The notes beneath the pieces are model-generated. The model was not told where the DNA came from. It saw nothing but the letters and a program-made list of their open reading frames with translations, and made no database searches. A program made the position numbers and the translations under genes. This document shows, piece after piece, positions 3,773 through 11,145 of a stretch of DNA of 64,000 nt (within the stretch, counting starts at the first letter, position 1; each line of letters begins with the position of its first letter). Location of the stretch: assembly GCA_012401045.1 (NCBI GenBank), contig GCA_012401045.1_4704.2, one strand, 5' to 3'. This DNA is from a phage.

Positions 3773-4081
3773 ATGAGCAATTTGAACGTTGAATTTACTT
3801 CAACAACGCCTGTCATGAATGGTGTTGGCACTGAAACCAAAATCGTATTAGAACCCATTCCAGGGTTACGCGATCTCGGTGATTTTTATCCACTGATGCC
3901 GCGTATACGGAAGGCCTTAAACAGTATCGATCTTGATTCCAATAAAGATTTCCAACACGATACAGAAAATACCGATCATGTATTGCTGCCATCAGGGATC
4001 GCAAAATTCACCTACACGCAAACATTGAAAGCCTCTGATGGTGAAATCCGTCGTTTTATCGTTGAAGTAGAAAGCGCATAA
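3773..4081 (+). CDS. hypothetical protein (about 102 aa from ATG 3773; ORF track extends to GTG 3680)
   Basis: The GTG at 3680 and ATG at 3731 lack an RBS; ATG at 3773 has AAAAGG upstream; bidirectional hairpin downstream. Confidence 0.4.
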   Translation: MSNLNVEFTSTTPVMNGVGTETKIVLEPIPGLRDLGDFYPLMPRIRKALNSIDLDSNKDFQHDTENTDHVLLPSGIAKFTYTQTLKASDGEIRRFIVEVESA

Positions 4082-4085
4082 AAAC

Positions 4086-4117
4086 CATCCTCCCTTCCCT
4101 TACGGGTTGGGAGGATG
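4086..4117. terminator. conserved GC-rich hairpin family, copy between convergent genes
   Basis: CATCCTCCC-TTCCC-TTAC-GGGTT-GGGAGGATG; minus-strand reading has GTAA loop and is followed by GGTTTTT. Confidence 0.5.
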
Positions 4118-4134
4118 AAATATGCCGTTAAACG

Positions 4135-4764
4135 TTATTCAACAAACCCTGCATTCAACAGATTGTCGTAAACACGATTAGCGACATCAACAGGAGAATG
4201 TGTGTTACTGGTATCTATACGCAGCGTTTTCGCGTCGCCGAGATAGTCCATAAAATCCATGTAACGATAACGTCGTTTATTGAATGTCGCTTCATCGATG
4301 TTATCAAACATCTGATGTTTAGCGTGACGAACACGGAACCGCCTTAAATACGTAGGATAGTCGATATCCAGATAAACATAGTAAGACGGCATGATAATCG
4401 ACGGTAGGTTCGGCAACAATGCGTCAAACAACTTAACGTTGGCATCATTAACCTGATAAACATACGTCGAAGCAATCGAACGATCGCTAAGCACAGTCTT
4501 CCCTTCGTTAAGGGCTGGATGAATCACCTTGTTGAAGAGATGATTACGTTGCGACATCATCGCCAATAGTTCAGTTTCTGGATCGAATCTGTTCGTTGGT
4601 GTCTGATCTTCCAGGATAAGTTTACGAATGGCTTCTCCGTAGAGCGTACCACCGGGTTCACGTACGACACAGACGTTGTTTAAACGACTGTGTAAAGACG
4701 AGATAACCGAACTCTTTCCTGAATAATCCAGACCTTCAATAACGATATATTTATTACGAGACAT
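4135..4764 (-). CDS. tmk: thymidylate kinase (dTMP kinase)
   Basis: P-loop YIVIEGLDYSGKSS and REPGGT motif collinear with bacterial Tmk; ATG at 4764 with GGAG SD (ORF track begins at TTG 4776). Confidence 0.85.
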   Translation of the reverse strand: MSRNKYIVIEGLDYSGKSSVISSLHSRLNNVCVVREPGGTLYGEAIRKLILEDQTPTNRFDPETELLAMMSQRNHLFNKVIHPALNEGKTVLSDRSIASTYVYQVNDANVKLFDALLPNLPSIIMPSYYVYLDIDYPTYLRRFRVRHAKHQMFDNIDEATFNKRRYRYMDFMDYLGDAKTLRIDTSNTHSPVDVANRVYDNLLNAGFVE

Positions 4765-4780
4765 TCCCCGCTCCAATTAA

Positions 4781-6034
4781 CTACTTCGTTTTCGCCGTTA
4801 TCGGCTGCGATACTGTAATCTCGACCCGATCGACATCGGTACGTTTAACGATGATAAGGCTGCGTTCATCACCGAATGGTTCTGAGATCTTACAAGCCTC
4901 TTTAAGATTTTCGAGAATCGTGCCATGGGGTTCAAACACCGCAAAACCGGAACTAGCGTCGATTCTTATTAAATATACACGCACATTGTTTACGGTAATG
5001 GTGTCATCCGTCTTGAACCCACAGCAGGAGGGTAGACAGAACTGACCATTAACGCAATTAGCTAAGTATGCCTCACCACCGAACATTTCTATTAACGTCA
5101 CCGGTTTAAATGTTTTCTCTGGGAAAGCATTATTAAGAATATCGTTTCCATTCACAAACCAGATCGTTACTTTATCTTCGGAATACGCTAGTCTGTATGG
5201 TTGGGTTGCGGACGCCTGCGCTTTATGCTGGTTAAATAACTTTGATTTTGTCGCAATCACAGCACGACCTTGGGCGTCAAAGTACAGAACTTCATACCCA
5301 ACACATCCGATAAACACGCGACGGTTATTAAGTTCCGGAATTCTGACTACTAACGCATTACCATCTTCCGTCGGTGTAATACCACGTAGGATGATAGATT
5401 CGTTGTTCAATGTTGAGTTGCTCACGATGACGCTTCGCATTACCGCTGGCGACACTATTTCATCTGCTGCAGGTTCAAGTTGCTCCGCTGTTACAGTCAC
5501 GGATCTGTCTTCCTTTTCAACTGGCCAGTTGAAAAGGATTGTTTTATTAAGACAAACAATTGGGGTAATTTCGCCGATACTCCGTATCTTGACTGAGGGG
5601 CAATTGCACACATACGGAACAAAAACATCAATATCGTTGGTCGCTTCTTCAAGCATGCTAGCATACGCCATTGCTTCGGGACGATCGGTGAGATGAATAA
5701 CAGCATAGACGATATCGTCTTTTAACCACGCACGTTTCACTCGTCCTATAACACGATTGATGTCTACAATAACTCTCTGAGCTTTCATCTCCCATTTTAC
5801 TGCATCAGTACCACCCGCAACCACGTTCGGTTTATCCGTGTTTACACGATGAAGGAAACTATTGATTATTTCCTCATCGATCTGGATATCCTTTCTCGCA
5901 AAATTCAACAACGGAATAACGAACTCATTGTTACCGCACTTCTCTGCTCCGCGAATGATAGGAGTACACTTCTTGTTCTCATCTGATCCCCAGATAACTT
6001 TAGTCATTTTCTGTTTCCTTCTTGGGTTTTGCAC
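4781..6034 (-). CDS. hypothetical protein (417 aa), Cys-rich C-terminal half
   Basis: Long ORF in the recombination/nucleotide-metabolism cluster; no metallophosphatase motif order recognisable. Confidence 0.5.
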   Translation of the reverse strand: MQNPRRKQKMTKVIWGSDENKKCTPIIRGAEKCGNNEFVIPLLNFARKDIQIDEEIINSFLHRVNTDKPNVVAGGTDAVKWEMKAQRVIVDINRVIGRVKRAWLKDDIVYAVIHLTDRPEAMAYASMLEEATNDIDVFVPYVCNCPSVKIRSIGEITPIVCLNKTILFNWPVEKEDRSVTVTAEQLEPAADEIVSPAVMRSVIVSNSTLNNESIILRGITPTEDGNALVVRIPELNNRRVFIGCVGYEVLYFDAQGRAVIATKSKLFNQHKAQASATQPYRLAYSEDKVTIWFVNGNDILNNAFPEKTFKPVTLIEMFGGEAYLANCVNGQFCLPSCCGFKTDDTITVNNVRVYLIRIDASSGFAVFEPHGTILENLKEACKISEPFGDERSLIIVKRTDVDRVEITVSQPITAKTK

Positions 6035-6040
6035 AAGTTT

Positions 6041-6655
6041 CTAACGGCGTTTTGTACCGACCTTCCCATTTCGATGGTCATCAAGAATACGCCATTCTTC
6101 GAACAGGAGTTCGGCTGCGAAATAACCTACAGCGATGCTGTCTATCGCATGCTCATCAAGATTCGCTAACACAACACCGTTTCTGGGTGTGATGTTCATG
6201 AGGTTCAACACTTTCTGGCGAACATCGTCCTTACCAACACGGGACGTCATAATCCCAACAGCGCGTTTTGCGCTTCGGTTATCAACCCCTAAGAAAGATA
6301 CCGTAGGATCAAAATCGATAACCGTTGTCTGAATCGCTGAAAACAGCTCGCTGAGCGCCATACCGCTTTGCTTGAAACGACCGATGAATGGCGTCTCACA
6401 AGCGACCGCTTGCGGCTGGTACTCTTGCAATAACGTTGTCAGTGAACGACGGTGTTCTTGGATACGTGCGGCACGATTACCGTATCCAAGCGCAATATCG
6501 CCATCGGGATCATATCGACGTGAAGCGTGCCATGTCCCTGCATACAGCAGTTCAATATCTTCGACACGCACGTCCAAACGTAGTAACGACGCACCGAGTG
6601 TATCGGTGCCAGGGTCGATTGCCAGAATATCGTAAGCGTATTCTGGTGGGATCAT
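6041..6655 (-). CDS. RuvC-like Holliday junction resolvase
   Basis: ILAIDPGTDTLG N-terminal motif, QPQAVACETPF, and C-terminal DEHAIDSIAVGYFA collinear with RuvC catalytic regions; start taken at ATG 6655, which forms an ATGA overlap with the upstream stop (track start 6682). Confidence 0.65.
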   Translation of the reverse strand: MIPPEYAYDILAIDPGTDTLGASLLRLDVRVEDIELLYAGTWHASRRYDPDGDIALGYGNRAARIQEHRRSLTTLLQEYQPQAVACETPFIGRFKQSGMALSELFSAIQTTVIDFDPTVSFLGVDNRSAKRAVGIMTSRVGKDDVRQKVLNLMNITPRNGVVLANLDEHAIDSIAVGYFAAELLFEEWRILDDHRNGKVGTKRR

Positions 6656-7467
6656 GGTGTTACAACAGCCTCTACTGACCATGGGAAGGTTTTCGCAACA
6701 ACACCTTCCAGGAAGCGTTCAACTTCCGATTGCTCATACACCGAAAGCTTTTCGAACGGCGTTTGGTCTTCGGTTAAACCTATCGCATGAATAGGACCCA
6801 GGTCTTTAACCAGAGTAACTTCACCTTTAACGCCTTCGCGTTTAACGATGATCGCATGATCATTAACCTTGGGATCATACAGCACGCGCATCATGGTTAC
6901 CGCGTCATCCGGTTCATGACCGAAATCGATGGCAACACGGGCATTCGTCCCTTCATCGTCCAGAAGCTTGCTTAGCGCTTTACAACGGTCTTCAATCCAA
7001 TCCAAAGCGACCACGGTTTCTTGGCGTAGCTGAACCTCAACCTCTTTTCCTTGTTCGTCGATACGTTTCACGGTAACAAAATCGTGTAATAAACGGTCAG
7101 GAAGGAGAGAAGAAATAAGCTCAATGTTGGGTTCAGGTTTTTCGTTTTCCAGAATGATGGTCGCTTGTGCGTCCAGATGTTCTTTAAAACGGATGTAGCG
7201 CGTTAATCGCAGAACTTCATCTTGGGATTTTGCGTCTTCGGGAATAATCTCCGTCATGACGTTATAAATCTTTTCAGCGAACGTCGGAATTACGGTGATT
7301 GTAATTCGTGCTGGTGTACCACGCTCCTGGTACTCATCGGCTAACTTCTTCGCCATCCCGTTAAAGTAGGTCTGGAGAAACGGTTGCTGCGTTAAAAACA
7401 TTTTCTCCAGATCGGAATAGCGATGCTTGCGTGCATGGCCTAGCTTCTTCATGGGTTTTTTCATCAA
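6652..7467 (-). CDS. hypothetical protein (271 aa)
   Basis: ORF between Rad50-like and RuvC-like genes, translationally coupled to the latter; no nuclease motif identified. Confidence 0.5.
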   Translation of the reverse strand: MMKKPMKKLGHARKHRYSDLEKMFLTQQPFLQTYFNGMAKKLADEYQERGTPARITITVIPTFAEKIYNVMTEIIPEDAKSQDEVLRLTRYIRFKEHLDAQATIILENEKPEPNIELISSLLPDRLLHDFVTVKRIDEQGKEVEVQLRQETVVALDWIEDRCKALSKLLDDEGTNARVAIDFGHEPDDAVTMMRVLYDPKVNDHAIIVKREGVKGEVTLVKDLGPIHAIGLTEDQTPFEKLSVYEQSEVERFLEGVVAKTFPWSVEAVVTP

Positions 7468-7485
7468 CAGAAATCCTTATTTGTC

Positions 7486-9942
7486 TTAAATAATCGTGAC
7501 GTGTTCGTTATACGTTTCAGGGAGAATGATGTTCGTTTTATCAAGAACCATACACTCGGCTTTACGGAATGATGCATGGTTGATCACATAGTGACTGATG
7601 AACCACACCTGGCTTACGCGGTGACCATCAACCAGACGACGAACAAAATCCATGGCATTAGATTGGTGCTGTGGATCAAATGTTGATGCGAATTCATCTA
7701 ACATCAACGGATAATCCGTGAACCCTTTGTAATGCATCATCGCGATGATGAACGCGATATTGATAATTTCCTTTTGTCCCTTACTCCCATAAACAATATC
7801 TTTTCGCGGTGTCGGATACTTCTCAGTTAAAAGCGGAAAACGATAGTTCAATCCTTGCGCGTCGATAGCACACGGGAGTATCTGAAGTTGGTATTCCCAA
7901 ATACTCGCAATGATGCCGTTCATGTACTCAACGAACGCGTTGATGGGACCCGCAATTGTTTCGGCAATCAGTCCGTTGGATGGACTCAACTCATCCAGAA
8001 CAAGTTGTGCGTAACTGAGCTGTTCTTCCACCTCTTTTTGTGTCGTTTCCAACTGAGCCAGAAGCTGCTGGTCGGTTTTAGCTTCCTGTAACTGCTGTTC
8101 GACATGACTTATTCGGCGAACTGTATCAGACATCGCAGCACGTAACGATTTCGTGTAGAGGTGTTGCAGATACTCTAACCACAGTTGCGTTAACGCTTTA
8201 TCGCTGTTATCAGAACGTACCTGATCTTCCATAATCGCCGTAATGGTTTCCAATCTACCTTCCGTAGCTGTGATGGCTTGTGTTAACCGCTCAACGGTTG
8301 TTAACAACTCTGTCCTGTTCTTATAAAGCAATTCTCGACGTTGCTGTAACGGTTCAACATCAACCGCTTGTACCCGTTCGAGCATACCTTGAAGATGCTT
8401 CCGTTCCTGTTCGGCTTGTGTGTAACGCGCAAGTTTCTCAAACGCAAGCAACCAATCGTTAATGATTCCAATGCTGCGGAATCCTAAACCGTTTTTACGT
8501 CCTTCTTCCAGCAGATTATCCCACATGGGTTTAATGGCGTAATAATCCTTCGTCCAACGTGTTAACTGACGATGCTGTTCCATCCAGAGCGTATAGCGCT
8601 GAACCTTCTCACTAAGCTCAGCTAACGATTTCTCTTGTTCTTCAACCCAAGCACGGCCTTTCTGAATGCGTTGTTCAATACTCGCTTTGCTGGTCTTTTC
8701 TGTCTCACCAACGTGAAAGCGATAATTGCATTTTGGACAGCTGGTCTGGGGTTGATGATTCAGGTGGTCAAGATGCGCTTCCAAATCGGCTAACGCATGT
8801 TTCGCGTTACGCAAACGCATTCTTGCCGCCTCTTCCTCCTTGATGTAAGCTTCAGCATCGTAAACATGATAGGTGTTGTCGGTATCAATCCATTCTTGGA
8901 GTAATTCTGTTAACGGAGCCTGAACTTGCGTGAGCTGTTGTAAACAAACCGCAGCGTCCAGATTCATTGTTAAAAGCTCACCTGGATGATCTTGCTGAAG
9001 TTGTTCGTCCAAACGTGCAATGCGGGCTTTAATTTGATCGATATCACCTTCGCCAGACTGTTTCAACTGGTCAAGGATATTATCGATACCCAACAGCTCG
9101 TCAACCTGACTTTCGAGTTTCGCATTCGCATTCGCGAGTTGTTCTCTTAGTTCAGCCAGATTCTGCTGTTCTTGTTGCGATGTTCCTCCTTGGTAACGAA
9201 CAACCGCACGAAGAAGCTCGCGATTAAAATGATGGGCACGTTGTGCGGATTCCAGAAGCTGTCGTTGATCAACATCGCTATCGAATAACGGCAATCCCAT
9301 CATCGCTTCGAGCGCTGAGCGTTGCTGCTTTAACTCCGCTTCCAATCCCTGATGGTCGGTGCCGGTGTATTTCGCTTCAATGCGTTGTGATGTTTCAACC
9401 AACTTATTCAGTGTATGCTCATTCACCGCTTTCAGTGAACGTACTTGTTGCTTAACCACCTGAAACAACTCGAGTGCGTAATCGACGTTAACCGGACATA
9501 TCTGCGTTAATCGTTCGCGACGTTTCATCGGTCCCATTTCGGTGAACTGATAAGCCGTTTCGTAACCTAACAACAAACGAATGGTGTCATCATTAAGTTC
9601 AAAATGTTCTTCGATCAGTTTCCACTGGGCCGGTTGTGTGCCACCACCATTCAGGTTATCGCTATCGTTAACGTAGAACTCATGCTTAAACCCTTTTTCT
9701 AAACGACTGATAAGACGGTATTGCTTATTACGATGTTCGCAGCGGTACTCGTAATACCCGTCTTTATCAAAATCGGCACGCTCAGGAACGGTCGGATACA
9801 GCAAAGGCAATAGACTACTCTTACCGGAACCATTACTACCTAAAATGAGTTGTACGGGATTATCTGGCCGGATGACCAGCTCCCGAATCATCCCGGTATC
9901 AAAACGATTGAATCCACGTAAGTGGAGATAGGTGCATCGCAT
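7486..9942 (-). CDS. Rad50/SbcC-like recombination ATPase
   Basis: Walker A GSNGSGKSS, long coiled-coil middle with CPKC zinc-hook motif, C-terminal SKGQK signature-like and LMLDEFAS Walker B; start taken at ATG 9942 (MRCTYLHLRGF), track start 10005. Confidence 0.7.
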   Translation of the reverse strand: MRCTYLHLRGFNRFDTGMIRELVIRPDNPVQLILGSNGSGKSSLLPLLYPTVPERADFDKDGYYEYRCEHRNKQYRLISRLEKGFKHEFYVNDSDNLNGGGTQPAQWKLIEEHFELNDDTIRLLLGYETAYQFTEMGPMKRRERLTQICPVNVDYALELFQVVKQQVRSLKAVNEHTLNKLVETSQRIEAKYTGTDHQGLEAELKQQRSALEAMMGLPLFDSDVDQRQLLESAQRAHHFNRELLRAVVRYQGGTSQQEQQNLAELREQLANANAKLESQVDELLGIDNILDQLKQSGEGDIDQIKARIARLDEQLQQDHPGELLTMNLDAAVCLQQLTQVQAPLTELLQEWIDTDNTYHVYDAEAYIKEEEAARMRLRNAKHALADLEAHLDHLNHQPQTSCPKCNYRFHVGETEKTSKASIEQRIQKGRAWVEEQEKSLAELSEKVQRYTLWMEQHRQLTRWTKDYYAIKPMWDNLLEEGRKNGLGFRSIGIINDWLLAFEKLARYTQAEQERKHLQGMLERVQAVDVEPLQQRRELLYKNRTELLTTVERLTQAITATEGRLETITAIMEDQVRSDNSDKALTQLWLEYLQHLYTKSLRAAMSDTVRRISHVEQQLQEAKTDQQLLAQLETTQKEVEEQLSYAQLVLDELSPSNGLIAETIAGPINAFVEYMNGIIASIWEYQLQILPCAIDAQGLNYRFPLLTEKYPTPRKDIVYGSKGQKEIINIAFIIAMMHYKGFTDYPLMLDEFASTFDPQHQSNAMDFVRRLVDGHRVSQVWFISHYVINHASFRKAECMVLDKTNIILPETYNEHVTII

Positions 9943-10056
9943 GCTATGATAATCCTTCTTCGATACCTTCTGAACCACGGGTTCAGAATGCGAAGCTGAA
10001 GCCATACTTCAGCGTTATTTTCTATATCGTTATTTAAATCAGTAGGAGATTACAGC

Positions 10057-11145
10057 ATGAGCGACCTGGCAACAGACAATCGCACAAAAGGGAGTCAGCT
10101 AGCTCCAGACAACAACGTAAGCGTTTTCCGTATCTATGCCTTGGGTACTGTTGCTGCCGACTTTTCCAATAAAAGTCTGGAGGAAGATCCTAACCAGACG
10201 CTGGAGGTCTTTCTTGATGAGATGATGTCAGGCGCTGATGGGAAAGTTGAAGCGGCGGGAAGCGTTAAAGAAGTCAGTGCAACAGACGCTCAAGGGAACA
10301 GTTATACGGCGAAAGCGGCAACGACTACCAGTGTACAGTGTTACTGGTTACCCTTTGGTAGTAACCGGATGACAGCACCTAACTTGAGGAAAGGTCAGCG
10401 TGTGGTGGTTTGGCGTACCGCCGATGAAGAACAACTCTACTGGCAACCCAAAGGAGGGGATAGTGAGCTGATGACCATGGAATCGGTTATCCTCACCGTC
10501 AGCGCACGTCCTAGCGCCAAGAAGGACCGTAAATCGATTTCAACGGAAGACTGCTATTACCTAATGGTTGATACCTTCCTCAAGAAAGCGGTTATCGGCA
10601 CCAGCGCACAGCTTGGTGAAGTTACCCAAGTCTACATGGAACTTAATCTGGACGAGGGTTACCTACAGGTTGCGGACAGCGTTCATCAAAATCTGTTGTT
10701 ACTCCATTTTGTCGAGCATATGCTGCGTTATCAAAACCAGGACGACAGCATCATCGACGTGACAAAAAAGAACATCACGTTCCAGTGCGAGGATACGCTC
10801 AAAGCCATTGCTAAGAACGATATCCGAATGAAAGCAAAAAACATTTATACCGAATGTGAGAACTTCGAGCGTACCAGCAAAACAGAAAGCGTTACGAGTC
10901 AGAATGTTTCTTTGAAGTGTGATCGTTACACCGCGCAAGTATCAGGACAGACCACGTTTAAATGTCCGAATACGGTATTCACTGGAGCTGTAAGCTTCAC
11001 AGGTGAAGACGGAAACACGATGACGTTGAATGGGAACTTCGTACACATCGCAGGCTCTTGGCGTTCACCAACCGGAACAAACGTATACACCCACGATCAC
11101 GGTGGTGTAGATCGTGGTAGCGGTCGTACAGACCCGTTCCAATAA
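10057..11145 (+). CDS. hypothetical protein (362 aa), possibly virion or baseplate associated
   Basis: ATG with AGGAG SD; C-terminal Gly-rich region with HDH motif (THDHGGVDRGSG) loosely reminiscent of spike-tip metal sites; assignment speculative. Confidence 0.45.
   Translation: MSDLATDNRTKGSQLAPDNNVSVFRIYALGTVAADFSNKSLEEDPNQTLEVFLDEMMSGADGKVEAAGSVKEVSATDAQGNSYTAKAATTTSVQCYWLPFGSNRMTAPNLRKGQRVVVWRTADEEQLYWQPKGGDSELMTMESVILTVSARPSAKKDRKSISTEDCYYLMVDTFLKKAVIGTSAQLGEVTQVYMELNLDEGYLQVADSVHQNLLLLHFVEHMLRYQNQDDSIIDVTKKNITFQCEDTLKAIAKNDIRMKAKNIYTECENFERTSKTESVTSQNVSLKCDRYTAQVSGQTTFKCPNTVFTGAVSFTGEDGNTMTLNGNFVHIAGSWRSPTGTNVYTHDHGGVDRGSGRTDPFQ

Follow-up and report, generated by a model that had tools for sequence, protein, structure and literature searches.

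We analysed a 64,000-nucleotide (nt) stretch of phage DNA (NCBI GenBank assembly GCA_012401045.1, contig GCA_012401045.1_4704.2), hereafter the window, focusing on the gene for a Rad50/SbcC-like ABC ATPase and on the nuclease with which such an ATPase would act. This gene heads a series of five consecutive, closely spaced open reading frames (ORFs) on the minus strand, with lengths of 839, 271, 213, 417 and 213 amino acids (aa): the ATPase, a 271-aa protein, a RuvC-type resolvase, a 417-aa protein and a dTMP (thymidylate) kinase. An earlier examination of the letters alone (the sequence-only reading) had placed all the ORFs where we find them and had described the ATPase as clustered at 6041-9942 with the resolvase and the kinase, and lacking a recognisable Mre11/SbcD partner. 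The genes of that cluster are real, but the interval given for it covers neither the kinase nor the 417-aa ORF. By its sequence the window is a relative of Escherichia phage vB_EcoM_Goslar, a nucleus-forming jumbo phage of the Chimalliviridae with E. coli as its host: positions 4000-10100 match the start of the 237-kb Goslar genome with 96.3% identity and the same gene order, a window coordinate being the Goslar coordinate minus about 13. The five genes are the counterparts of Goslar gp008 to gp012.

The mechanical ORF of this ATPase spans 7486-10005 on the minus strand and would give 839 aa from the ATG at 10005. The start adopted in the Goslar annotation and seen in the homologs, all of which begin with M-R/K-C-T-Y, is the second ATG, at 9942, which yields a protein of 818 aa beginning MRCTY (7486-9942). 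Since all homologs start at this second ATG, the 21 extra codons are probably an untranslated leader in the divergent intergenic region. The translation displays the Walker A motif or P-loop, GSNGSGKSS, at residues 35-43 (9814-9840, minus strand), and, on translation and alignment, the Walker B strand and D-loop, PLMLDEFASTFD, at residues 745-756 (7675-7710, minus strand), with D749 and E750 in the Walker B sequence LMLDE, and the D-loop aspartate D756. The ATPase signature motif takes the divergent form SKGQ at residues 720-723 and the H-loop is an SH dyad at 783-784. About 490 residues (roughly 160-650), poor in proline and glycine and rich in E, K, Q, R and L, part the two halves of the ATPase head and constitute a predicted long coiled-coil insertion. 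At the midpoint both of this region and of the whole protein, at the predicted apex of the coiled coil, lies CPKC (residues 402-405; 8728-8739, minus strand), the sole CxxC in the protein.

We aligned eight homologs, sharing 21-50% identity, from the window, two metagenomic sister lineages and the phages phiKZ, RP31, Ea35-70, RTH11 and pTD1. The invariant positions comprise G35, N37, G38, G40, K41 and S43 of the P-loop and the Q-loop glutamine Q106, along with S720 of the SxGQ signature, D749 and E750 of Walker B, D756 of the D-loop, and S783 and H784 of the H-loop. C402, P403 and C405 are likewise invariant in all eight chimallivirus proteins, and a zinc hook is thus predicted. The Walker A motif, CPxC hook and D-loop which the sequence-only reading had recognised are all upheld by the translation and this alignment.

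The family relationships of the protein are equally consistent. It matches the 'SbcC-like' family phrog_77 (E = 7.6e-75) and is 99.3% identical to Goslar gp012, which has already been annotated as SbcC-like. Single-sequence searches of the PDB with the ATPase, and with the nuclease candidate described below, returned nothing useful, and only family profiles gave matches: with the ATPase profile the top five are all Rad50 (1.6e-9 to 1.3e-8), the first being 3qku with both head lobes matched, and PtuA and SMC3 trail at about 2e-6. For the central region the profile returns designed coiled coils, keratin and, weakly, a fragment of human RAD50 (5gox; E = 0.039) over profile positions 297-464, a segment that includes the CPxC. 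The Pfam family SMC_N is matched right at threshold, with residues 259-805 set against just 143 profile positions. On these comparisons the ATPase is a member of the Rad50/SbcC family, nearer to Rad50/SbcC than to other SMC-like ATPases, as the sequence-only reading had it; the possibility that it might be an unrelated SMC-like protein was not borne out.

Homologs of the ATPase occur in 287 phage records, nearly all of them phiKZ-like jumbo phages, with PHIKZ165 among them. It is a core gene of this family of nucleus-forming phages and the ortholog of phiKZ gp165. In phiKZ, orf165 tolerates no transposon insertions (bioRxiv 10.1101/2025.11.23.690004); in the literature we found no localisation data for the SbcC-like protein.

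No window ORF has a GN[HN][DE] motif in a phosphoesterase context, and the best E-value of a chimallivirus SbcD profile run with hmmsearch against the window ORFs is 1.3. The RefSeq annotation of Goslar holds no gene named SbcD or Mre11. The sequence-only reading had left two options, namely a partner encoded elsewhere or a non-canonical partner among the neighbours, and had proposed inspecting the rest of the genome for an Mre11 homolog. Run over all ORFs of the complete Goslar genome, the SbcD profile picks out a single protein of the SbcD/Mre11 family, gp178 (NC_048170.1, 162609-163751, minus strand), which RefSeq labels 'hypothetical protein' and which is encoded about 153 kb from the ATPase gene, beyond the window. 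It shares 32% identity over its full length with the annotated SbcD of Ralstonia phage RP31 (ORF279; E = 2e-59), whose surroundings agree in gene order with the Goslar gp173-gp180 region, and it matches the 'SbcD-like subunit' family phrog_100 at 1.8e-40. A further Goslar phosphoesterase, gp157 (a 185-aa Metallophos_2 protein, phrog_547), was considered as an Mre11 candidate and rejected: it is only half as large, is a member of another family and goes unmatched by the SbcD profile.

In an alignment of eight members of the gp178 family the motifs DxH, GD, G-T-x-x-H-D, HG and GHxH, that is, the metal-binding motifs of Mre11, are invariant (D20, H22, G56, D57, G96, T97, H100, D101, H172, G173, G209, H210 and H212). 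When the family profile is compared with the PDB, Mre11/SbcD structures take all of the top 17 places and 18 of the 19 matches listed, the one other being weak and unrelated; they include Thermotoga maritima 2q8u (the best, 1.2e-6), 3qg5, P. furiosus Mre11 and E. coli SbcD 6s6v. Goslar gp178 is thus assigned, by sequence and profile comparison, as an SbcD/Mre11-family nuclease subunit.

The two families are distributed alike: gp178 homologs are found in 315 phage records as against 287 for the ATPase, and the counts per host genus are near-identical (gp178 family/ATPase: Pseudomonas 81/81, Erwinia 62/60, Salmonella 24/24, Vibrio 23/22, Serratia 21/21). The phiKZ ortholog of gp178 is PHIKZ065 (gp65), about 114 kb from PHIKZ165. 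Both phiKZ genes, 065 ('Nuclease') and 165 ('SbcC-like nuclease'), are listed as 'Core genome' and are top hits of one antisense knock-down screen (PMC12571901). The sequence-only reading had taken an adjacent partner as the norm. In phiKZ-related phages its absence is no anomaly, as separated genes have been described there: one paper calls the two genes of this group 'placed in distance' (PMC7823757; ORF189 and ORF34 in pSal-SNUABM-04), and RP31 gives a second example (ORF65 and ORF279; PMC5468394). Because the family keeps its SbcC and SbcD genes apart, a distant partner is the normal arrangement, and the puzzle dissolves.

It could be objected that the gp178 family consists of unrelated phosphoesterases which are not the partner of the ATPase. 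The two genes are never adjacent in the family, the weaker PDB matches of the ATPase profile include SMC3, Smc and PtuA, and the only named Pfam family it matches is the generic SMC_N. Set against this, the ATPase profile finds Rad50 best and the CPxC hook is a hallmark of Rad50/SbcC, not of the SMC hinge, while the matches of the gp178 family are almost all to Mre11/SbcD and its motifs for metal binding are retained; the two families moreover inhabit the same phage groups, and both phiKZ orthologs score in the same screen. We regard the objection as very unlikely to be correct.

We therefore consider it highly probable that the block is one of five DNA-metabolism genes in which the family's Rad50-type ATPase works with the phage's own, distantly encoded Mre11/SbcD, and that neither of the two neighbouring proteins is the nuclease partner. 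Several points weigh against this. Motif III of the chimallivirus nucleases is the variant G-T-x-x-H-D in place of the canonical GNH[DE], and gp178 on its own scores 14.8 bits against Pfam Metallophos, below the cutoff of 21.5, though its RP31 ortholog, at 23.1 bits, exceeds it. The partner lies outside the window, and we infer its presence in this exact genome from the 96%-identical Goslar and from an IMG/VR contig of 237.5 kb on which a copy of gp178 with 99% identity is found; the interaction, localisation and activity of the Goslar proteins are likewise inferred. Finally, it is spacing alone which suggests that the five genes are probably co-transcribed.

The spacing in question is tight throughout. 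A gap of 18-21 nt separates the ATPase gene from that of the 271-aa protein, whose stop codon overlaps the RuvC ATG in the tetranucleotide ATGA at 6652-6655, read directly from the sequence as it had been earlier; from RuvC onward the remaining gaps measure 6-33 nt and then 4-16 nt. We saw no convincing minus-strand terminator inside the block. A scan for sigma-70 promoters and terminators gave results indistinguishable from shuffled sequence, the phage's own promoters being beyond the reach of such a scan.

The 417-aa ORF (4781-6034, minus strand; about 408 aa from a Met at 6007), the counterpart of Goslar gp009, is one of the two neighbours which had been raised as a possible non-canonical partner. 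It shares its position in the gene block with the ATPase, and this is all that speaks for such a role. The protein is hypervariable: it is only 62% identical to Goslar gp009, when the five surrounding proteins are 97.8-100% identical to theirs, and in public data it falls into 181 distinct clusters at 90% identity, with identities ranging from 62 to 99%. The variation is concentrated in the N-terminal half (column identity 0.53-0.67), the C-terminal half being conserved (0.84-0.95). In two sister lineages its place is taken by an unrelated 163-aa ORF or is empty, and both keep the ATPase, the 271-aa protein, RuvC and the kinase; the 417-aa protein thus cannot be an obligatory partner of the ATPase. 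Aligned with the SbcD profile by hhalign it attains a probability of 0.08%, with no phosphoesterase signal and none of the motif series I-VI. The AlphaFold model is of low confidence (predicted local distance difference test score, pLDDT, 45.5); the N-terminal domain models as the fold of a prohead protease of the T4 gp21/herpesvirus assemblin type, not a nuclease fold. No His or Ser in residues 30-165 reaches 70% conservation among 24 homologs, and the sequence does not resemble that of gp212, the prohead protease of Goslar itself. As modelled, this looks like an inactive, fast-evolving domain of the protease fold. The 417-aa protein is a hypervariable accessory protein rather than a nuclease, and its candidacy as the nuclease partner is already effectively refuted, with a negligible chance of being right.

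The other neighbour is the 271-aa protein (6652-7467, minus strand; 270 aa from the ATG at 7464), corresponding to Goslar gp011. Its alignment has an hhalign probability of 0.25% against the SbcD profile, and phosphoesterase motifs I-VI are absent from it too; the earlier statement that neither flanking ORF is a metallophosphatase stands, and neither the profile comparisons nor the low-confidence models revealed a canonical Mre11/SbcD next to the ATPase. Of the two options left by the sequence-only reading, a partner elsewhere is the one realised, in Goslar gp178; no sequence, profile or fold test suggests a non-canonical one among the neighbours. The protein belongs to no Pfam, PHROG or NCBIfam family, the weak hits to a 'head scaffolding' PHROG (E = 0.0067) and to the Pfam family Ad_Cy_reg (E = 0.0035) being below threshold and ignored, and its AlphaFold model is of low confidence (pLDDT 58.5).

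Relatives of gp011 are few. Among 50,697 phage records the only one is Goslar's own, and a HMMER scan of 1.84 billion representative proteins recovered three lineages, the protein's own and two at 45% identity, plus a fragment of one. A 632-aa protein (P0124) also surfaced; it is a tandem-repeat protein and its match is most likely spurious. Both sister lineages (L013 and L016) are phage contigs with the same order of genes: the tail spike on the opposite strand, the ATPase, the gp011-like gene, RuvC, an optional small ORF and dTMP kinase. Protein identities across the three lineages amount to 44-45% for gp011, with comparable values for the ATPase (49-50%), the kinase (37-44%) and the spike (49-54%). 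Within Goslar-like phages gp011 is very uniform, with 302 sequences in one 90%-identity cluster. Trace peptides of gp011, gp009, gp012, gp178 and the kinase are listed in the mass-spectrometry table of the Goslar virion (bioRxiv 10.64898/2026.04.21.720040, Table S4), from which it follows that these proteins are made; their presence there probably reflects carry-over, not packaging.

The N-terminal tail of gp011 is basic, with 7 Lys/Arg in the first 20 residues, in a protein with an overall isoelectric point of 5.3. Within residues 1-40 the tail is followed by the family's best-conserved stretch, S-x-LE-x-x-FL-x-QQP-x-LQ-x-YFN. This region could form a binding or targeting segment.

We also considered whether gp011 is a diverged form of genes found elsewhere in the family. 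Against the next gene after the ATPase in Ea35-70 and in RTH11 its hhalign probability is at most 0.2%, so that it is no version of either, and those two genes are themselves mutually unrelated. In three other chimallivirus genera (L025:2037-3561, L026:2069-3585 and L027:2064-3537) a gene of roughly 290-300 aa directly precedes RuvC, encoding a DUF7941 protein in RAY (gp11) and DUF7208 proteins in Aphrodite1 (Aphrodite1_0058) and PS119XW (gp163). The two compared directly, RAY gp11 and PS119XW gp163, show no hhalign similarity to gp011, which has the equivalent place in front of RuvC. In Aphrodite1 this gene carries the annotation virion structural protein, and DUF7941 proteins are connected with host recognition in the paper on the Goslar structure.

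These observations bear on a further proposal, that gp011 serves the ATPase, RuvC or both as an accessory subunit or adaptor peculiar to this clade, acting in addition to the distant Mre11-like nuclease and not replacing it. Such a protein might provide regulation of the Nbs1/Sae2 kind, couple end processing to junction resolution, or aid import into the phage nucleus. In its favour, gp011 is wedged between the ATPase and RuvC genes, with a short gap on the ATPase side and a stop/start overlap on the RuvC side; the two sister lineages preserve precisely this layout, and in them gp011 has diverged to an extent similar to the ATPase; it is strongly conserved within Goslar-like phages; and its peptides are detected in Goslar preparations. 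However, the three lineages are collinear overall, and even the tail-spike gene, which is unrelated, keeps its place equally well; a shared gene order thus says little about a functional link. Moreover, other chimalliviruses with the same ATPase and RuvC have no homolog of gp011, nor does it resemble the genes adjoining the ATPase or RuvC in other genera. We judge an additional subunit of this sort unlikely. The more specific version, a Goslar-clade accessory factor that physically links the Rad50-like ATPase to RuvC or directs both into the phage nucleus, seems to us similarly doubtful; were it true, gp011 would add to a viral Mre11-Rad50 machine a third component for which no counterpart is known. 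What can be stated is that gp011 is a conserved, expressed, clade-restricted orphan, for which joint action with its neighbours is conceivable but unsupported.

The resolvase and the kinase, by contrast with the two proteins above, had been given functions in the sequence-only reading, and both are real. The RuvC-type Holliday junction resolvase (204 aa; 6041-6655, minus strand, within an enclosing 213-aa ORF at 6041-6682; Goslar gp010) scores 26.0 bits against Pfam PF02075 (cutoff 22.2) and matches phrog_159 at 1.6e-21. E87, E168, H169 and D172 are invariant among its phage homologs, the last three forming E168-H169-x-x-D172, and five of six homologs have the Asp of the IDPG motif, the sixth aligning only from after the motif. 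Its score falls short of the NCBIfam equivalog cutoffs, which marks it as a divergent phage RuvC. The dTMP kinase, encoded by the last gene of the block (4135-4776, minus strand; an ORF of 213 aa, with 209 aa from the ATG at 4764), matches Pfam PF02223 at 9.8e-28 and the equivalog family TIGR00041 with 111.4 bits against a cutoff of 83.25. In the family's other genera 13-27 kb separate the RuvC and ATPase genes, and a gp011 homolog is absent; only in the Goslar clade, then, do the ATPase, gp011 and RuvC stand side by side. The compact recombination and repair module that had been suggested accordingly exists in that clade and does not extend to the other genera.

On the other side of the ATPase gene, a tail-spike/baseplate-hub gene on the plus strand (10057-11145; the counterpart of phiKZ gp164 and of Goslar gp13, whose identity as the spike is taken from bioRxiv 10.64898/2026.04.21.720040) diverges from it (window 9943-11145). 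This head-to-head pairing of a repair gene with a virion gene is kept in every chimallivirus genus examined, across protein identities of 21-50%.

Extrapolating from Mre11-Rad50/SbcCD, the preferred reading, an ATPase acting with a remote nuclease, would work as follows. The ATPase would form dimers by way of its ATP-binding heads and of a zinc-bridged CPxC hook at the end of arms of roughly 240 residues, and would bind the gp178-type nuclease (the Goslar gp178/phiKZ gp65 ortholog) encoded about 150 kb away. The resulting complex, presumably acting inside the phage nucleus, would open or resect DNA ends and hairpins and so feed the recombination-dependent replication of the large linear genome. 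The branched DNA generated in this way would fall to RuvC for resolution, probably before packaging, and the kinase would supply thymidine diphosphate (dTDP).

Taken as a whole the finding is essentially ordinary: this is an already known phage ATPase of the Rad50/SbcC type with its partner about 150 kb away, as throughout the family. The SbcC-like annotation of the ATPase, its core status, its importance for phiKZ infection and the separation of SbcC from SbcD had all been documented previously. What is gained is a correction of annotation, Goslar gp178 and its orthologs being the SbcD/Mre11-type subunit, and a clear negative, in that neither neighbour is a cryptic nuclease. Two small leads come with these: the orphan wedged between a Rad50-like gene and a RuvC gene, and the hypervariable, probably inactive prohead-protease fold in a block of DNA-metabolism genes.

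The closest known systems are those of the same family. phiKZ gp165 and gp65, like RP31 ORF65 and ORF279, are orthologs of the Goslar pair, with 23-27% identity over the full length and with the same motifs and hook; in phiKZ and other Chimalliviridae, as in Goslar, the ATPase and nuclease genes are far apart and the ATPase gene diverges from a tail-spike/baseplate gene. The genera differ in what lies downstream of the ATPase, which is gp011, RuvC and dTMP kinase in the Goslar clade and unrelated genes in phiKZ, RP31, Ea35-70, RTH11 and pTD1. With cellular Mre11-Rad50 and E. coli SbcCD (3qku, 3qg5, 6s6v) the phage proteins share an ABC head split by a coiled coil, an apical CxxC zinc hook, and a partner nuclease with the DxH, GD, HG and GHxH metallophosphatase motifs. 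They depart from these in having shorter arms (818 aa in all), the signature SxGQ, and a nuclease motif III of the form G-T-x-x-H-D, not GNH[DE]. In bacteria sbcD and sbcC are adjacent, whereas in this phage family more than 100 kb separates the two. Phage T4 likewise encodes a Rad50/Mre11 pair, gp46/gp47, which serves recombination-dependent replication and whose genes lie close together; the likeness to it is at the family level, phrog_77 and phrog_100 being the general SbcC-like and SbcD-like families of phages.

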